Positions 37,680 through 45,904 of a DNA stretch of 64,000 nucleotides are shown one piece after another (within the stretch, counting starts at the first letter, position 1; each line of letters starts with the position of its first letter). The notes under the pieces were generated by a model that was given only the letters and a program-made list of their open reading frames with translations, did no database searches and was not told where the DNA came from. The position numbers and the translations under genes were made by a program. The stretch is taken from assembly GCA_039630575.1 (NCBI GenBank), contig JBCNUW010000001.1:64659-128658 (forward strand). The letters run 5' to 3'. Source of the DNA: Candidatus Hydrothermales bacterium. Lineage in GTDB: Bacteria > Hydrothermota > Hydrothermia > Hydrothermales > JAJRUZ01.

Positions 37680-40022
37680 ATGATTAAATTAGTTTTGTTT
37701 TTATATCCCCTCTATTTTACTCCTGGGGAAAATTTTTTCCCAAGTTATCCATTTGCGAGTCAGAATATTTACTTTAATCCAGCCCTTATAGGTTCCGAAT
37801 TTAACCCAAGTTTTACCTTTTCCTTTTTATCAACCAACCTTGCTCTTACAAATAATGGATTATCTATATCACTATACAACGATATTATGTCTGCTCATGG
37901 TGATTCTATTACAAAATCTTTAAAAGAGAGCTTCTTTAAAAACATCGGGTCCTCATGGAAAACAAATCACCTTTCATATTTTTCACCCTTTTCATTTTCT
38001 TTAGGAAGATTTGCTTTTGGTTTAAGGGCTATCCAGGGTTTAATTTTGATGTTACCCGAACCATGGCTAAGGATTCTACTCTACGGAAATGAGCTCGATA
38101 AAACCTATTTTGCAAACAAAGACAATACTGCATTTCAAGTTTTAAACTTAATTGAAACAAGAATAGGTTCCGGTTATGGTATTTTTTTAGATAAAGAGGA
38201 AAAGTACAGGTTAATTTATGGTTTAAATTTTGCCTTCTATATATCAGGACCTTACGTTGAGCTAAATGAAGTTAATGTAAGATTAAATTCTTACTATGAC
38301 GGAATAACTGGGGATGACTATATTAAATTAAAGTTAGACACAACCTTTCTAAACTTTGGATATTCAATAGATTTAGGTTTTGGTTTAGAGTATAAAAAAA
38401 TCCTAAATTTTTCTCTAGGTTTAAACAATATAATATCAAATATAAACTTTTCAAAAGGTATTACCTATATCCACTATGGAAACCTTGACACTTTTTATTT
38501 AGGGGAGGGAATAGATTTTGATACTTTGTATACTGACAAATTAGATACCATACCAGGTGCCTTCAGTGTAAAACTTCCTCTTATTTTGAAATTTTCAACC
38601 TTCTATAGACATCCAGATGATAAGTATAGATTATTTTTAATATGGGAGCAGGGATTCAAATATACAGCATTTTCAACAAAAACACCGAGGATATCTCTTG
38701 GAGGGGAATATTTTGTTCATCCAAGAATACCATTAAGATTTGGTTTTGTTTTTGGAGGCTACGAGGGGTTAAGTCTATCTTTAGGCGCAGGTATAGTAAG
38801 CAGAGAAATTTCCTCAATAAATATTGGAATTTCACAACATAGGGGAATACTATTAGGTTCAAGGGGTATCTCATTCTCATTTTTAACGGAATTTCATTCC
38901 ACATTTAAAGGAAAATTTAAATTTAAAATAATGGATTCTCTTACAAATAAACCTATAGCTAATGCTATACTTAAACTAACAGATAAAAACAATAAAAAAG
39001 TTTTTGAAGGTCAAAGTGATGTAAACGGTGAAATAAGAGGAGAAATTAAAAAAGGCGAATATAAATTTGAAGTCGAAGCTGAGAATTATTACTCTAAGTC
39101 AGGATTTGTGGAAATAAAACAAGGTAGAGAAAAAGAAGAAAAAATTTTACTTAAAACAAGATTTGGTTATCTTACATTATATGTTAAAGATAGAGAGACT
39201 CTTAAGCCATTAGGTAATGTAGATGTTACTGTTCAGTACAAAGAAAAAACAACAAAAGTAAAAACTGATTCATCAGGTATATTAAAGCTTAGACTGGAAA
39301 GAGGAGAGTATAAATTTAAGTTTGAACATCCTGACTATATGGTGAGGACAGAAAGCTACAAGGTTGAATCTGGAGTTCAAAAGGAAGTTGAAGTTTTCTT
39401 AGCAACTCGTTTTGGTACTGTTAAGGGTAAAGTTTACAATGCTCAGACACTTGAACCCCTTAAAGGTCAACTGGAAATTTATCCTGAAGGTAAGGACAGT
39501 GTTATAGAAAAGTTAGAAACAACTTTAGATGGTAGCTATAATGTAAAACTCTCTGAAGGGATATACAAATTCAAAGTAAAAGTTTCAAATTATATTCCTC
39601 AAGAAGCTTATGTTCAAGTAATTGGAGGGAAAGAATCTCTAAAAGACTTTGCTATGCTTAAGGAAAAAATGGTTTTTACTTTTAGAAACATCTATTTTGA
39701 TTTTAATAAGGCTACAATAAGACCTGAATCTTACCCAGTTTTAGATTCTATTGCCCTTATGTTAAAGGATAACCCAACTATAATTGTTGAAATAGGCGGA
39801 CATACAGACGAGAGAGGAACAAGATCCTATAACAAAAATTTAAGTCAGCAAAGAGCCGAATCTGTCAGAAATTACCTTTTTGAAAAACATGGTATAGAGC
39901 TTTTAAGACTCATTCCTTTAGGATACGGAGAAGATTTACCTATTATAAAGAATGCTAAAACAGAGGAAGAGCATCAATTAAACAGAAGAGTAGAATTTAA
40001 AATTTTAGGAGAAAAGAGATGA
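37680..40022 (+). CDS. OmpA-family outer-membrane protein: putative N-terminal barrel, beta-sandwich repeats, C-terminal OmpA domain
   Basis: NPA motif near the N-terminus; three repeats of D/N-x-x-T-xxP...G-x-Y-x-F; NIYFDFNKA, GHTD, N..LSQQRA, NRRVEF. Confidence 0.85.
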   Translation: MIKLVLFLYPLYFTPGENFFPSYPFASQNIYFNPALIGSEFNPSFTFSFLSTNLALTNNGLSISLYNDIMSAHGDSITKSLKESFFKNIGSSWKTNHLSYFSPFSFSLGRFAFGLRAIQGLILMLPEPWLRILLYGNELDKTYFANKDNTAFQVLNLIETRIGSGYGIFLDKEEKYRLIYGLNFAFYISGPYVELNEVNVRLNSYYDGITGDDYIKLKLDTTFLNFGYSIDLGFGLEYKKILNFSLGLNNIISNINFSKGITYIHYGNLDTFYLGEGIDFDTLYTDKLDTIPGAFSVKLPLILKFSTFYRHPDDKYRLFLIWEQGFKYTAFSTKTPRISLGGEYFVHPRIPLRFGFVFGGYEGLSLSLGAGIVSREISSINIGISQHRGILLGSRGISFSFLTEFHSTFKGKFKFKIMDSLTNKPIANAILKLTDKNNKKVFEGQSDVNGEIRGEIKKGEYKFEVEAENYYSKSGFVEIKQGREKEEKILLKTRFGYLTLYVKDRETLKPLGNVDVTVQYKEKTTKVKTDSSGILKLRLERGEYKFKFEHPDYMVRTESYKVESGVQKEVEVFLATRFGTVKGKVYNAQTLEPLKGQLEIYPEGKDSVIEKLETTLDGSYNVKLSEGIYKFKVKVSNYIPQEAYVQVIGGKESLKDFAMLKEKMVFTFRNIYFDFNKATIRPESYPVLDSIALMLKDNPTIIVEIGGHTDERGTRSYNKNLSQQRAESVRNYLFEKHGIELLRLIPLGYGEDLPIIKNAKTEEEHQLNRRVEFKILGEKR

Positions 40023-42947
40023 TGGGTTAAAAAGGTTATTATTTTCAAAACCCAAGAGATTTTCCCTTTTTTGGATTCTGCTTTTTATATTTTCAAAAAT
40101 ATTAAGGTATCTTTCAAATAAATATTTAATTACTTCGTAGCTATCTATCTTCTTAAAGATCTTTATAAATTTTCTTATAACAATAAGATGTAAAAAAGGA
40201 ATGGGATATTTAAAGATCATTTCAAGAAACTTTTCTAATTCTTCAAAAGTTAGCCTTTTATCTTTTCTAACAAGCTTTAAGGATTGAATATATAGATTTT
40301 GCAATACCAAGTTTTTAGTTAAATCTTCAATTTCAGTTATACTAAAACTATTTATCAAACTTTCATCCTCTGACCCAAGAATAAGTAAAAAAAAGATGTA
40401 AGGGTCTTTTAAATAGGATAAGTTAATATATTTTGTTTCTATTTTATTTCCTTCATATAAAGTTTTAATTGAGTTGAAATAAAAAGAATAAAAAGAGTTA
40501 TAAAATCTCTGTGAAAAGGAAATCCCAATTTTATTGGACAATTTGAATAAATTTTCATTTTTAAAAATTAAACCTAAAAAACACTTTATCTTTTCAGATT
40601 CCATAACATTTTCATGGTTCATTTCCATAAAAGAAGATTTTTCAGCCTCCATTGATGCTTCTAAAGAATCTTCGAAGTTTCCGGTCCAGAATAGAAAGTC
40701 TGACAAATTTATTTTAAATTCTGAGTTAAAATAACCCTTTTTCAAAAGATCTCTTTCAGACCTTTTTAAGTATAAAAGAGCATCAAAAAATTTTCCTTCT
40801 CTCTTTGCGATTTCAGAATAGAGCAAATTTATTTTAGCTAAAGTTACTTCATTCATAACTTTAACATCCTGAAGAAATTTTCTGGCAGACTCAAAAATTC
40901 CCTTTTCAATATAGGATTTAGCTAAACTGAAATTAATTTCGTTCCATCTTGAGTCATTTTTGTCAGTCAAAAGTAAAGCTTTGTGTAAATTCGAAATAGC
41001 CTTTTCAAAATCTTTTGATAAATAAGAGTATATACCCTTAAGATAAAGATATTCTCCCATTTCAAGAGGTCTTATCTTGTGATTTTTTAGTACAACTTCT
41101 TCAATTTTTTCAAATATGAAAAAAGGGATAAAACCTGTGCCCTCCTTTAGGAATTTGTCTAAAGTCTTTAAGGAATATTCCCAAGCTATGTCATATTTTT
41201 TTGCTTTTAGTGATTGTATAAATAAAAAGTATGGATTATTTTCAGCCCAATCTGTATATTTAAGGGTATCTACAATCTCTTCGTGTAATTTGTTTTTAAT
41301 AGTGTCAGGTATAGAGTTATAAATAACTTCTCTAAGAAGAGGATTAATGAAATGTATAGTATTATTTTCTATTCTTAAAATATCCTTAGAAATAAGACCA
41401 ACTAAGCTTTTTTCTATTTTTTCTGAAAAATGTTTCGAAAGTGGAGAATCTAAATCTAACTCTACTATCAAGCTCAATATTTCAAGTAAATCTTTTTCAT
41501 ATATTGTTAATTCGTTAACTTGTGAAAGGGCAAAGCTCATTAGAGATAAAGGAAGCTCTTCTTTTCCTTCAAGATCTTTACCTTTCAACTTTAAACTTTT
41601 CAAGTACTGTGCTATAAATAGTGGTATACCACCAGTGATTGTTGCAATTTTATAAATTGTTTCAAACTTAACATTCGGATAATATTTAGAAACTAATTCC
41701 ATTACCTCATCTACATTTAGTGGTTTTAGATCAATCTTATAAATGTTTGTTAAATCTAAATTAACTGGAAGGGTTCTTGCAGTTAAAATTATAAATGTAC
41801 TATCAAGTTTATTTTTGATAAAGTTAATTAACTCAATCGAAAATGAATCAGCCCTATCTATGTCATCGAAAATTATAATTAACTTTCCTCTTTTTTTTGT
41901 TATTATTCTTAAAAAATCTAAAAAAAGATACTTTATTCTTTCACTTATATCTTTTTCTTCAGATGTTGAAGTTAATACATCCAAAAAAAATTCTATATAT
42001 CTTTTCAGAAATTTAAACTCTTCCTTACTCATTGAATTTACAAGAAAAGTTTTTAATGGATAAAATGGTTCATCTGTATAAACTTCACACCCCCTTAGTT
42101 TTATTATGAAATTTTTTTCCTTTAAATTTTTAACATAATTATCAAGAAAAAAGGTTTTCCCAACTCCTGCCTCACCTGTTAAAATAACAGATCTACTCTT
42201 TCCGGATTCTAAATCCTTTAAAAATTTATCAAATAACTCCTTTGCATCTTTTCTCTCAACAAAAGGAACATCAAAAATTCCAGGTTCATACATCTTGCTT
42301 CCTGAAATCAATGTATAAATTTCCATTTTTTCTGTCTTTCCTTTTAACCTAATATTGCCCAAATATTCAAATTCAAAAAATTCAAGTGAAGCTTCATATA
42401 TATCAAAAGAAACATATTTTTTATTTCCAAGATTAGTAGAGAGTCTTTGAGCAGTGTTAACACAGTCACCAAGCGCAGTCAAAGACATTCCTTCTCCAGG
42501 TTCAACTTCACCAAAAAAAGACCATCCAGAAGATATACCAATTCCGTAATCACACATTTCAGAAAGCTCACTTTTAATTAAATTTTCTATCTTAAAGGAA
42601 AAGTTTAAAACTTTAAAAACTAAATCTCTTTCGAATTCGTTATGACCAAAGATAAAAAGACCACCTTCATGAAAATTAAACTTTTCCAAAAAAGCGTCAT
42701 AGGATCTGGCTAATCTTTCTACTTCGTATAAAAAATTTGTAAATTTGTAAACTAAATTTAAATCTATTTTAACTTTCCATTTTAAAGTTACAAAAAGAGA
42801 AATAATATATTTTTTTCTTAAAATAAACGGGATTTTTGTTGGTCTTGTATCTTTAAGTTTTTGTCCACAATTAGTACAAAAATTGTATGAGTTTTTTAAA
42901 TTTACATTACATCTCTTACACTGAACTATTTCTATAGTACCATGCAT
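40005..42947 (-). CDS. Zn-ribbon + class III cyclase-like domain + STAND/AAA ATPase + TPR-like protein
   Basis: CxxC...CxxC; TALGDCVNTAQRL and LKGK cyclase motifs; GEAGVGKT Walker A, IFDD Walker B, GGIPLF; helical C-terminus. Confidence 0.85.
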   Translation of the reverse strand: MHGTIEIVQCKRCNVNLKNSYNFCTNCGQKLKDTRPTKIPFILRKKYIISLFVTLKWKVKIDLNLVYKFTNFLYEVERLARSYDAFLEKFNFHEGGLFIFGHNEFERDLVFKVLNFSFKIENLIKSELSEMCDYGIGISSGWSFFGEVEPGEGMSLTALGDCVNTAQRLSTNLGNKKYVSFDIYEASLEFFEFEYLGNIRLKGKTEKMEIYTLISGSKMYEPGIFDVPFVERKDAKELFDKFLKDLESGKSRSVILTGEAGVGKTFFLDNYVKNLKEKNFIIKLRGCEVYTDEPFYPLKTFLVNSMSKEEFKFLKRYIEFFLDVLTSTSEEKDISERIKYLFLDFLRIITKKRGKLIIIFDDIDRADSFSIELINFIKNKLDSTFIILTARTLPVNLDLTNIYKIDLKPLNVDEVMELVSKYYPNVKFETIYKIATITGGIPLFIAQYLKSLKLKGKDLEGKEELPLSLMSFALSQVNELTIYEKDLLEILSLIVELDLDSPLSKHFSEKIEKSLVGLISKDILRIENNTIHFINPLLREVIYNSIPDTIKNKLHEEIVDTLKYTDWAENNPYFLFIQSLKAKKYDIAWEYSLKTLDKFLKEGTGFIPFFIFEKIEEVVLKNHKIRPLEMGEYLYLKGIYSYLSKDFEKAISNLHKALLLTDKNDSRWNEINFSLAKSYIEKGIFESARKFLQDVKVMNEVTLAKINLLYSEIAKREGKFFDALLYLKRSERDLLKKGYFNSEFKINLSDFLFWTGNFEDSLEASMEAEKSSFMEMNHENVMESEKIKCFLGLIFKNENLFKLSNKIGISFSQRFYNSFYSFYFNSIKTLYEGNKIETKYINLSYLKDPYIFFLLILGSEDESLINSFSITEIEDLTKNLVLQNLYIQSLKLVRKDKRLTFEELEKFLEMIFKYPIPFLHLIVIRKFIKIFKKIDSYEVIKYLFERYLNIFENIKSRIQKRENLLGFENNNLFNPSSLFS

Positions 42948-42950
42948 GTT

Positions 42951-45185
42951 TTAAAGTCTACGCATAGCCATAGAGGCAGCAAGTTTAACTTGTCCATCTG
43001 GATCATTTAAAAGTTTTTTCAAAAATTCCATAACCTTTTCAGACTTATGCCTTGATAAAATTCTAACAACTTCAACTCTTATCTCAGATGGAAACTTTGG
43101 TTTTTTTAAGAAAGTTTTGTCAAAAAGAATTTTTTCAATTATTGGATAAGCTTTATCAGGTATGTGTTTGATCAAAAAATTTATTGAAGGTATGATAAAT
43201 TCTCTTGATTCATCTTTATCAAGGGTATTTTTAATAAATTGATAAATTAAATCAACACTTTTAAATGTCCCAATTTTTAAAAGAGTTCTCAAACATTCAA
43301 GTTTTACATCCTTATTCTGTGTTTCCAAATAGACTTCTAATATATCATCTTCAACAGATGAAACATTATATTTTGTAAAGGTCTTTAGCACCTCTAATTT
43401 TGTACTGTCTTCTCCCATTTTCAATATTTTAATTAAAAGAGGTATACCTTCCTCATCTTTAACTTCTCCTAGAATAATTGCTACATCACGAAGATTTACA
43501 AATGATTTACTTTCAAGATCTCTATAAAATTCCCTTCTATACTCAGCTGGAAAATGAGACAGAATTTTAGCTATCCTCTTTTTTATTGTAATATTTTCCA
43601 TTTCAGGAAAAATCTCCTTAAGAGCTACAAATCCCTCTTTTCCCGCAGATAAAAATGCTTCTTCTATTTCCTTCTCTGTCTCATCATCCCATAATTGAGT
43701 TAAAAGTACTCTTGTTGAAAATTGAGTACCAATTTTCCCAAGTGCCCTTATAGCAACTTTTTTCTTTGATCCCGAATCTAATAAATCTCTAAATGCCTTC
43801 TGTATATCTTCAACAATCAATAAAAGATCTTTTTCTTTAGCAACCATAACAATCTTTTCTAGTCCTTCAATATATGAGAAAATCACAGCAGGATGTTCCT
43901 CTTCAAAAACTTTTATTTTCATTAAATTTATTATTTTTTCAACAGATCCTAGCTTTTCGGCTCTTAAAAAAGTAATTGCAAAAGAAATTAAAGCATCAAT
44001 TGCAGAAATCCTTTCATTTTCATTCTCATTTGTGAGTTTTTCTATAATGGGCTGAAGGAAAGATTCCATCTCTGAAGCAGCTATTCCACCTTCAAGCTCT
44101 CTTTCTAAAAACTTCAATTTTTTCTCTCCTGTTATTACAAGCTTTTTTTCTCTTGCTATCCTTTCAAGTAATTCAGTTTCTTTGTCTTCATGTGATTTTT
44201 TAGTTGTTGTATAAATTTTTCTTTTTTGGAGTATGTCCTTTAACATATCTGGCAACTCGCTTTCTCCTTCCTTTAATCCCGAAAAAAGCAATACAAGTTC
44301 TCTATCATCCATTTCATCAAGAATTTTTCTTATTGACTCCGCTATCTCTCTATACTTTTCAGATTCCTCTATAAACCTTATTTTAAGAGCTGGAGATAAA
44401 ATTTTTAGTATATGTGTAATAACAAGAGAAAAATTATGTGAACCATCTTCTCCGTATTTTTCTATTAAATAGTGAGCAACAATTTTTAAAGCTGAAATTA
44501 AGTCCTTAACCTTTAAACTATCAAATTCTTTTTTTAAATTTAGACCCATCATATCTAAAAAAATATCTTTTACTAACTCCTCCTTTTCAATATCTTGTAA
44601 CTTATTATATTCTCTTAAAAAACCGTCAAATTTATCTTGAACCTCTTTACTTAATATTTTCTCTTCTTCTTTTTTAATTTCCGAAACAACTTTAGATAAA
44701 TGATCCTTTTCTTCTAAAGTCAAATCTAATTTTAATTCTCTTTCTGTAGAACTTAATTTGAACTTTACCTCATTTAATCTAATCCTTTCAACATTTCTCT
44801 GCAGAAGTAGTTCAGATGGGTCTTTAACCTCTAAGAACTTTTTTAAAGGTAAAGTAAAAATTTCAAAGAAAATTCTTAGATCATCCTGAATTACATCCCT
44901 GTCAATCGAAATACTTTCAATTTTAAGTCTAAAGAAATGTTTCGCCATAGATTGAATAGCTGGAATTTTGCTTATATCAATCCTTGTATCTTCAAAAAGT
45001 ATGATATTTTCAAAGAAATAAACGGATATTGTGTTATACTTTAATGGGAATTTTTTAATTATCTCGAGAACCTGCTCAGCTGCTTTATTGAAAGCAGGGT
45101 GCCCTGCTGGGTACATCTTTGAATATGTTAACCCTACTCCTATCTGTTTTAAAAGTTCAATTACTAAGGATTCTATCTGTAACAT
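42951..45185 (-). CDS. HEAT-repeat protein with N-terminal YPxGHP domain
   Basis: AIRALGKIG, VAIILGEV, LLNDPDGQVKLAA HEAT/PBS-like repeats. Confidence 0.8.
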   Translation of the reverse strand: MLQIESLVIELLKQIGVGLTYSKMYPAGHPAFNKAAEQVLEIIKKFPLKYNTISVYFFENIILFEDTRIDISKIPAIQSMAKHFFRLKIESISIDRDVIQDDLRIFFEIFTLPLKKFLEVKDPSELLLQRNVERIRLNEVKFKLSSTERELKLDLTLEEKDHLSKVVSEIKKEEEKILSKEVQDKFDGFLREYNKLQDIEKEELVKDIFLDMMGLNLKKEFDSLKVKDLISALKIVAHYLIEKYGEDGSHNFSLVITHILKILSPALKIRFIEESEKYREIAESIRKILDEMDDRELVLLFSGLKEGESELPDMLKDILQKRKIYTTTKKSHEDKETELLERIAREKKLVITGEKKLKFLERELEGGIAASEMESFLQPIIEKLTNENENERISAIDALISFAITFLRAEKLGSVEKIINLMKIKVFEEEHPAVIFSYIEGLEKIVMVAKEKDLLLIVEDIQKAFRDLLDSGSKKKVAIRALGKIGTQFSTRVLLTQLWDDETEKEIEEAFLSAGKEGFVALKEIFPEMENITIKKRIAKILSHFPAEYRREFYRDLESKSFVNLRDVAIILGEVKDEEGIPLLIKILKMGEDSTKLEVLKTFTKYNVSSVEDDILEVYLETQNKDVKLECLRTLLKIGTFKSVDLIYQFIKNTLDKDESREFIIPSINFLIKHIPDKAYPIIEKILFDKTFLKKPKFPSEIRVEVVRILSRHKSEKVMEFLKKLLNDPDGQVKLAASMAMRRL

Positions 45186-45792
45186 TTAAAGTTTCCTCCT
45201 TTAAAAGATAAAAATCTATATTTTGAACTACTTTTTTCTCATATAAGTTTTTTGGAAAAACTTTCTCAATTTCACCAAGTAAAACTATCTCATCTTTACT
45301 TATTAATGATTTTAAATAATTAATCATACTAATCAATTCAGAAGAGATAATTATATAGGATTTTTCTCCTAATCTTAGAGGATAAACAAGGCATCTCTCA
45401 TATATACCTATCATCTTCATTCTAATATCTTTTCTTATAACATCTGAATTAAAAAATTCTCTAACATCAATCAAAAAATTTATAAATTCATTAATATCGA
45501 GACTTTTACCAAGTCCAAATATAATCTCAATTTCATCACCTATGTATTGATTTACATAACCTCCATTTTTTTCAGCTATCATTTTTAAATTTGAAAATAA
45601 AAGAGAAAGATTAGATCTTAATTCAAAAAGTTCAATTCTCTCAGTTAAATTGGTAAAACCTATAATATCCATCCTGAAAACAAGAACATCTACTTCTATA
45701 GGTCCTTTCTTGATATAAAATCCGCAACTCTGACAAAAATTTCCATTACTATCAATTCGAGAACCACACTTTAGACAAATCTCACTTAGCAT
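45157..45792 (-). CDS. Zn-ribbon + class III cyclase-like domain protein
   Basis: CxxC...CxxC; MDIIGFT and YIGDE metal-binding motifs. Confidence 0.8.
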   Translation of the reverse strand: MLSEICLKCGSRIDSNGNFCQSCGFYIKKGPIEVDVLVFRMDIIGFTNLTERIELFELRSNLSLLFSNLKMIAEKNGGYVNQYIGDEIEIIFGLGKSLDINEFINFLIDVREFFNSDVIRKDIRMKMIGIYERCLVYPLRLGEKSYIIISSELISMINYLKSLISKDEIVLLGEIEKVFPKNLYEKKVVQNIDFYLLKEETLNVTDRILSN

Positions 45793-45826
45793 TTTTACTA
45801 TATTTTAAAGATTTTGCTTTAAAAAT

Positions 45827-45904
45827 TCAACTCCTTTTGAAGAAAGGTTCAAAAACAAAATAAAAAATTAAAAAAAGGAAAATAATAATATAGAAGAGTT
45901 TCAT
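45827..45904 (-). CDS. Unannotated 25-aa single-TM peptide MKLFYIIIFLFLIFYFVFEPFFKRS
   Basis: ATGA overlap with the ccmF stop; GAGGTG SD; hydrophobic core and basic tail. Confidence 0.55.
   Translation of the reverse strand: MKLFYIIIFLFLIFYFVFEPFFKRS

Follow-up and report, generated by a model that had tools for sequence, protein, structure and literature searches.

The stretch of DNA considered here (hereafter the window) comprises 64,000 nucleotides (nt) of contig JBCNUW010000001.1 from the genome of a Candidatus Hydrothermales bacterium (assembly GCA_039630575.1) and harbours, at positions 40005-45792, three open reading frames (ORFs), all on the minus strand, that we call genes A, B and C and that were found at the coordinates given in a preliminary description of the same DNA. 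Gene A (45157..45792) encodes a protein of 211 amino acids (aa), consisting of a zinc ribbon and a C1-like (metal-side) class III cyclase domain. Gene B (42951..45185) encodes 744 aa, with an alpha/beta N-terminal domain (YPxGHP), a helical middle part of low confidence and a HEAT solenoid, and gene C (40005..42947) encodes 980 aa, in which a zinc ribbon is followed by a C2-like cyclase domain (base and transition-state side), a STAND (AAA_16) NTPase and a TPR/helical tail. A and B overlap by 29 nt, and 3 nt separate B from C. We consider it likely that A and C pair as unlike subunits of a single class III cyclase, which would contain one active site and one pseudo-site, its product most likely being cyclic AMP (cAMP). 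In what follows, G-numbers denote genomes (G000 is that of the window) and L-numbers denote fetched loci.

According to an excerpt of PMC2576301, one monomer of a class III cyclase contributes two Asp and an Arg of beta4 to the active site, and the other contributes an Asn, an Arg, a beta7-beta8 Lys and two residues that read the base; we scored both sides by this assignment, on aligned columns. Protein A has the fold of a class III cyclase (AlphaFold2 model with a predicted local distance difference test score [pLDDT] of 86.5; Foldseek E 1e-10), its Foldseek matches including Cya2, CyaB and the C1 chain of 1CJK, and Pfam reports Guanylate_cyc just below the cut-off (E 3e-4, 20.8 bits) together with the zinc ribbon. 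As the preliminary description had it, A keeps both metal-binding Asp, lacks the Asn/Arg motif and has Q82 at the purine Lys site. The first Asp, D42 (45667..45669), and the second, D86 (45535..45537, within an invariant GDE), are present in 56 of 56 orthologues, and the beta4 position (126) is K/R in 55. On the opposite side the family has Thr in none, Asn in one, Arg in one and the beta7-beta8 Lys in none, with a gap at this last column in 52. An aligned column was used here instead of a crude K/R-G search of the last 50 residues, which had matched 17 of 56, and L091, a complete cyclase cut by a contig end, was left out of the A counts.

The cyclase domain of C (residues ~46-215; 42303..42812) is very divergent, and Pfam finds no Guanylate_cyc match in it, although the orthologue in L130 is recognised (PF00211, E 7.5e-10). 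A profile of the N-terminal part of the C family matches CyaB (E 9e-32) and the C2 domain of human soluble adenylyl cyclase (sAC; E 2.5e-24), the best-matching stretch of sAC being C2 and not C1. The residues listed for C in the preliminary description are likewise present in the sequence: T54 at the first Asp site, a distorted second site with H93/E94, and K89, T157, N164 and R168, to which K202 can be added. Among 53 C proteins, Thr and Asn are found in all, Arg in 52 with Lys in the other, and K/R at the beta7-beta8 position (K202) in 53, while the first Asp is retained in four (Asn 27, Ser 9) and the beta4 K/R in 22. Neither Asp is kept in the window's C or in the C proteins of the window's taxonomic order. 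It had been suggested that E94 might act as a substitute metal ligand, and this is not supported, as Glu is found in just 5 of 53 orthologues. C proteins were chosen by their position beside A or B or by profile score, without the use of residues as a criterion; the counts omit L116, whose N-terminal part is lost at an assembly gap, and include L238, the N-terminal piece of L116.

The halves of the active site are thus conserved on opposite proteins throughout the family (A n=56, C n=53), as anticipated from the single pair, and the two phosphate-binding positions (beta4 and beta7-beta8) extend the list of complementary residues, beta4 being less sharp. Since this complementarity persists among orthologues down to ~20% identity, it is not due to chance. 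Among 76 other cyclases, having all of these residues is the rule (first Asp 75, second Asp 76, Asn 67, Arg/Lys 75), the second-Asp count being biased because the pattern by which most of them were found contains that Asp. The A and C families align over their full length (hhalign 99.8%), and the ratio of nonsynonymous to synonymous substitution rates (dN/dS) lies between 0.04 and 0.30 in 12 of 12 A or C comparisons. Neither A nor the window's C carries all catalytic residues on one chain, as bacterial homodimeric class III cyclases do; instead, the metal side and the base/transition-state side lie on separate subunits, as in C1/C2-type enzymes. The C2-like subunit holds adenylate-specific residues, K89 and T157 in the window, with Thr in 53 of 53 and K/R in 39 of 53 family members; Thr can stand for Asp at the adenine-reading site.

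The locus occurs in ~58 of 272 genomes of the phylum WOR-3 (this and the following genome counts are among the top 150 matches listed), and the relatives that hold it carry WOR-3 titles. Profile searches find A in 58 genomes and C in 59; 56 genomes have both, and in the five that have only one of the two genes the locus lies at contig ends or assembly gaps. A search with A yielded 56 short-frame matches outside the window's genome, all of which were fetched. B stands directly behind A in 54 of 55 other A loci (gap -14 to +6 nt in 53 and 154 nt in one), in agreement with the tight linkage of the HEAT gene seen earlier; the remaining A locus stops at a contig end, with B and C on another contig of the same genome (L137). 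The three-gene order recurs only in part: C follows B solely in the window's order (L039, L040, L042, L043, L137, L236 and L237), whereas the rest of the phylum keeps the linkage as C-A-B. Upstream DNA of 40 of 50 other A loci shows a C orthologue directly before A in 39, the last being broken at an assembly gap. Outside WOR-3, one search pattern gave an A-type gene with B in 0 of 62 other loci among the 79 matches listed, and a homologue search for proteins of 105-384 aa gave 24 matches, of which the named top ones come from WOR-3.

Two separate lineages (L135, L136) have lost A and C while keeping the B gene that lies between them. In G047, a 95% complete genome of the window's genus, DNA identity to the window is 77-83% across B and the flanking regions, but both A and C are gone. 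Searching the rest of that genome with these two proteins of the window yielded no orthologue of either, and other cyclases remain there. In the L136 contig, which belongs to a mixed bin and is closest to the neighbouring family, B is intact, A is cut to ~20 codons and C to ~16 + 20. This paired deletion in two lineages ties A to C and leaves B free of both. A and C are the sole PF00211 matches in G146 (97% complete, 250 contigs), which encodes 3 cyclic-nucleotide (cNMP)-binding proteins; each of 4 other genomes of its genus has four PF00211 matches.

A complex of A(1-203) and C(5-222) with ATP and Mg was modelled together with 3 controls. The A-C model scores 0.78 against 0.41 for the best control. 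It thereby clears a mark attained by 116 of 157 solved complexes and 2 of 215 mismatched pairs, a pass that was to be expected from the likeness to solved cyclase dimers. The runs share at least 80% of contacts, with partner pLDDT of at least 84. The interface includes residues 45-48 and 82-87 of A and residues 87-94, 154-161, 164, 168 and 201-205 of C, and its most confident contacts join zinc ribbon to zinc ribbon. The ribbon of A (C6, C9, C20 and C23; 45724..45777), with its four Cys in 56 of 56 orthologues, packs in the model on that of C (C10, C13, C24 and C27; 42867..42920), where Cys is found in 50-51 of 53; that both proteins begin with a CxxC...CxxC ribbon had been noted before. With the reservation of that likeness to solved dimers, the model supports physical binding of A to C. 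The obligate, C1/C2-like heterodimer originally proposed is strongly supported by the reciprocal loss, the paired deletion, the absence of another cyclase match in G146 and the structure model; catalysis and its product are predictions from sequence.

In such a dimer, the two Mg-binding Asp (D42, D86) and the basic beta4 residue K126 would come from A. C would contribute K89 and T157 for reading the base, N164 and R168 for catalysis, and the beta7-beta8 residue K202. Divided in this way, the residues would make up a single complete active site, the other site being a non-catalytic pseudo-site, and either homodimer would be inactive. The N-terminal ribbons probably pack together and aid the choice of partner. 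The STAND-TPR part of C probably acts as the switch, a signal being received on the helical tail and followed by nucleotide exchange. This part comprises the STAND NTPase (residues ~229-480; 41508..42263; AAA_16 E 3e-14), with the Walker A motif GEAGVGKT at residues 258-265 (42153..42176), a Walker B region near residue 361 and a GxP near 440, and the TPR/helical tail (residues ~560-980; 40008..41270; TPR_2 E 1e-4 at 632-663), the presumed sensor, for which the L130 orthologue gives a TPR_12 match. All features of a STAND NTPase are found in C: Walker A, Walker B, GxP and helical repeats behind. The G, K and T/S of Walker A are present in 53 of 53 C proteins, as is an acidic Walker B column, and the Pro of GxP in 41, the remaining 12 being gaps. 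The intact Walker A throughout the family makes control by the STAND domain plausible. The likely receivers of the product are the CRP-like and other cNMP-binding proteins of the genome, which has five cNMP-binding ORFs, one of them with a Crp helix-turn-helix domain.

Several observations weigh against this reading. In the second-Asp column of C, Asp is found in 40 of 53 proteins, as PD (P in 39) with a one-residue insertion. Four of the 53 carry Asp in the first column as well as the second, including a second copy in an 8%-contaminated bin; some C proteins might therefore be weakly self-sufficient. K/R stands at the base-reading Lys site in only 39 of the 53 C proteins. The window's A and C lie on very long branches, and the counts cannot be taken as independent, because two families account for most of the orthologues. 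Three complete cyclases in the window's genome are potential partners of A or C. Other members of the phylum retain cyclase-like proteins that are catalytically empty, and conservation thus need not mean catalysis.

Among the alternatives the least improbable one, which we still regard as unlikely, is that A and C bind each other as a pseudo-enzyme: they would be a sensor of nucleotide or metal controlling the STAND domain, and what lies downstream of STAND, instead of a cyclic nucleotide, would be the output. The long branches, the strong divergence that makes Pfam miss the cyclase domain of the window's C, the 14 of 53 C proteins without K/R at the base-reading site and the existence of empty cyclase-like proteins in the phylum would all fit such a sensor. 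Such a sensor does not readily account for the near-invariance, at ~20% identity, of precisely one whole set of catalytic residues, among them Asn and Arg of the transition state, and Pfam finds in C no effector domain besides the cyclase.

Less probable still is an active homodimer of C (using the PD Asp together with Asn or another first-site ligand), or a role of A and C as modulators of complete paralogues, A being only a regulator in either case. The PD Asp in 40 of 53 C proteins, both Asp in 4 of 53 and the three complete cyclases of the window's genome speak for it. However, in the window's order C lacks both Asp, A always keeps them, and A and C were lost jointly in G047 while the other cyclases stayed. 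Pairing with complete paralogues is also made less likely by G146, in which PF00211 matches nothing but A and C.

A slightly smaller chance is given to an anti-phage enzyme of Pycsar- or NLR-like type, in which infection, sensed by the TPR tail, would trigger the synthesis of a cyclic nucleotide other than cAMP. Defence systems are known to include STAND-TPR sensors as well as class III cyclases, and the variable base-reading Lys would agree with an unusual product; the Thr found in 53 of 53 C proteins nevertheless fits adenine reading, if Thr may take the place of Asp. PADLOC has no model that matches A and gives only marginal matches for B and C. The characteristics of Pycsar (a PycC match with a linked cNMP-binding effector, and a defence-island context) were not found, the neighbours being of housekeeping type with no linked effector gene, and A and C are single-copy genes with subtrees that mirror each other. 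A defence role is therefore unlikely, given the PADLOC outcome, the lack of a linked effector and the mirrored subtrees. Finally, that A and C are decaying copies with accidental complementarity, as the loss of both genes in two lineages might suggest, is practically refuted by open frames in ~58 genomes, invariant opposite halves and the dN/dS values given above.

Two groups of cyclase-like proteins met during the searches are recorded here. Genus g61 has lone cyclase-like proteins of ~200 aa (L270:1435-2061, L272:1477-2004) with neither the first Asp nor an Asn/Arg motif; proteins of this type lie ~10 kb from a B paralogue in three genomes, and the gene directly before them is presumably SPFH/prohibitin-like. 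Actinomycete cyclase-STAND proteins (L160, L163, L196, L208, L218 and L226) have both Asp and the Arg, the catalytic Asn being replaced by Ala, Ile or a Val-type residue, and no partner cyclase was found in these loci.

The part played by B appears to be a different one. Its YPxGHP domain (residues 1-140; 44766..45185; Atlas template-modelling [TM] score 0.77-0.90) shares its predicted fold with the N termini of HD/HD_5 proteins and of other HEAT proteins, and its HEAT repeats occupy residues ~375-744 (42954..44063; Pfam HEAT_2 E 1e-13; AlphaFold2 pLDDT ~90). Foldseek of the B model returned generic HEAT/ARM solenoids only (TM ~0.2), and a contig scan with a single B protein as query gave no match. 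The N-terminal fold is also found inside a fusion of the window's genome, a 1220-aa protein with GGDEF, AAA_16 and a B-like domain with HEAT repeats (G000:C1:6372-10034; L250:876-4535, minus strand), which is full-length in 4 of 5 relatives tested. A B module can thus, judging from this architecture, occupy the usual place of a STAND sensor. The fold matches and the GGDEF-AAA_16 fusion suggest that the B family is linked to nucleotide-messenger enzymes with STAND domains, and binding of B to A or C is putative. A B-based search led to 20 further loci, of which L137 has C and L150 is cut just before B; the other cyclase-free loci, 16 in number, contain more distant homologues or paralogues, with no cyclase match in the fetched DNA, some of it cut by contig ends. 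In the lineages that lost A and C, the dN/dS of B is 0.14 in both cases. The earlier idea of B as a dedicated scaffold or sensor of the cyclase is weakened by this survival under purifying selection and by the 16 loci without cyclase genes, and B as a dedicated subunit can be ruled out as stated, since it is retained after the A/C deletion and often stands alone. Rather, B would be co-expressed with the pair and stem from an older HEAT family; it may modulate A and C, yet have its own job.

Solo B homologues and 680-aa B paralogues (L138-L154) often adjoin genes that we take to be guaA-, rpe- or purH-like, a hint that the B family is perhaps connected to purine metabolism. The B proteins of the window and of G047 are ~130 aa shorter than those of other members of the order (879-921 aa); the longer ones have a low-complexity insert mid-protein, in the part corresponding to window positions 44660-44090 (B residues ~175-365).

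As to the surroundings of the operon, the ribosome-binding site of B (AGGAGG, 45195..45200, minus strand) lies inside the 3' end of A, 9 nt before the start of B. The promoter must lie in an AT-rich gap of 108 bp (45793..45900) between A and a divergent 623-aa gene; scans for promoters and terminators gave about as many matches as chance would (32 against 33.2 expected). A convergent gene of 780 aa (37680-40022, plus strand), with carboxypeptidase-regulatory-like repeats and OmpA, shares 18 nt with the 3' end of C and is still in place in G047 after the loss of C. In the neighbouring family (L042, L043 and L136) the operon continues directly into chemotaxis-like genes, presumably cheW, cheY, cheA and cheC.

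Concerning the origin of the pair, A and C each form one clade (support 96 and 87 in a quick tree of 119 rows). They score 132-149 bits against single-domain ribbon-cyclase-STAND paralogues and 21 bits against the pieces of a fused sAC-like pseudogene, which makes duplication appear more likely than fission of an sAC-like gene. This pseudogene (G000:C5 ~40340-43810; L251:1841-5314) is heavily frameshifted and apparently once encoded a fused two-cyclase-domain STAND-TPR protein, its many breaks being possibly an assembly artefact. A second split cyclase pair, without B, lies on another contig (G000:C89:53068-58102; L004, L005). Its large member is a 1120-aa ribbon-cyclase-STAND-TPR protein with Glu and WP at the Asp sites and with Lys, Thr, Asn and Arg kept; its small member, whose gene overlaps the large one, is a 559-aa cyclase-TPR protein with both Asp kept and Asn and Arg lost. 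The same split of residues is seen in both large partners (2 of 2) and in all small ones (3 of 3). Close homologues occur in just 2 other genomes of 272 (L234, L235; 62-64% identity), one of them in another family, which hints at recent transfer. The quick tree sets this second pair apart from A and C. Approximately unbiased (AU) tests of A+C, A+D, C+E and D+E as clades reject none (p 0.51-0.79), and the constrained trees are better than the quick free tree; the tests thus demonstrate neither that A and C arose by duplicating a single ancestor nor that the second pair is independent. Of the duplication with reciprocal degeneration proposed in the preliminary description, the reciprocal loss holds family-wide, but the derivation from one ancestral duplication lacks the backing of the AU tests.

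The known systems that come closest differ in arrangement. Like sAC (ADCY10) and the sAC-like C1-C2-STAND proteins, whose layout is given as C1-C2-NTPase in an excerpt of PMC6023465, the pair has unlike C1 and C2 halves with an NTPase domain behind. In sAC, however, the halves are fused, whereas A and C are separate ORFs in all loci, each with its own ribbon, and in the window B sits between them. Fused bacterial sAC-like proteins exist. Soluble guanylyl cyclase (sGC) alpha/beta is, like A and C, encoded by two genes for homologous subunits, which form an obligate heterodimer (PMC2576301, in the part cited); unlike sGC, A and C are bacterial, lack H-NOX, PAS or coiled-coil domains (Pfam), have Lys/Thr in place of Glu/Cys and would be under STAND-TPR instead of heme control. 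Mammalian membrane adenylyl cyclases also split the catalytic residues over two domains, C1 and C2, each inactive alone, and have one degenerate site (portions of PMC9552081 and PMC8815786), but A and C have no membrane anchors, fusion or G protein.

Bacterial single-domain class III cyclase-STAND-TPR proteins (AAA_16 type), to which the mycobacterial Rv0386-type proteins belong, have the same domain order as C, but unlike C they hold all catalytic residues on one chain. Two such complete proteins are encoded in the window's genome, and the other sampled WOR-3 cyclases are complete single domains in 10 of 10 cases; this family is likely to be the ancestral one of A and C. Mutants of Rv1625c have reportedly been made to complement each other by engineering.

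Heterodimeric class III cyclases occur in eukaryotes (PMC8815786, as excerpted), among them the chytrid rhodopsin guanylyl cyclases NeoR and RGC1/2, which, like A and C, are encoded by separate genes and are obligate heterodimers; RGC1/2 retain every catalytic residue, so that their obligate pairing does not come from reciprocal loss. A literature search, with subscription reviews on class III outside its scope, found no natural two-gene bacterial class III heterodimer. A and C are thus best described as a conserved, reciprocally degenerate pair that would work in a C1/C2-like manner, outside sAC, sGC and the homodimeric bacterial cyclases, with an activity that is predicted.

We also put forward, as a tentative extension to which we give rather less than even chances, that the pairing of A and C is itself the switch, the STAND-TPR part freeing the half-site of C and the paired ribbons capturing A; that the second pocket binds a ligand of its own in the manner of the forskolin site in animal cyclases; and that the split design arose more than once in WOR-3. 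In the main clade this pocket is lined by a conserved Asn and PD-x-Arg of C and by Gln82, Lys155 and Lys161 of A, and the second split pair of the window's genome suggests the repeated origin.

According to the portion of a 2022 review that we cite (PMC9552081), bacterial class III adenylyl cyclases homodimerize, both monomers forming two productive sites, and asymmetry followed duplication and fusion in eukaryotes. If the main proposal is true, a vertically kept two-gene bacterial heterodimer would break this rule of homodimers and would offer an unfused intermediate for the origin of the C1/C2 asymmetry. It would also mean that small cyclase genes, or those annotated as 'degenerate', can be working half-enzymes. 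The pair would be a soluble AND-gate source of cAMP with a spare pocket, a possible tool, and would provide a simple read-out for the switching of signalling STAND-TPR proteins. Should the split design indeed have arisen more than once in WOR-3, the phylum would be a living model of how the pseudo-heterodimers of animals began before fusion.

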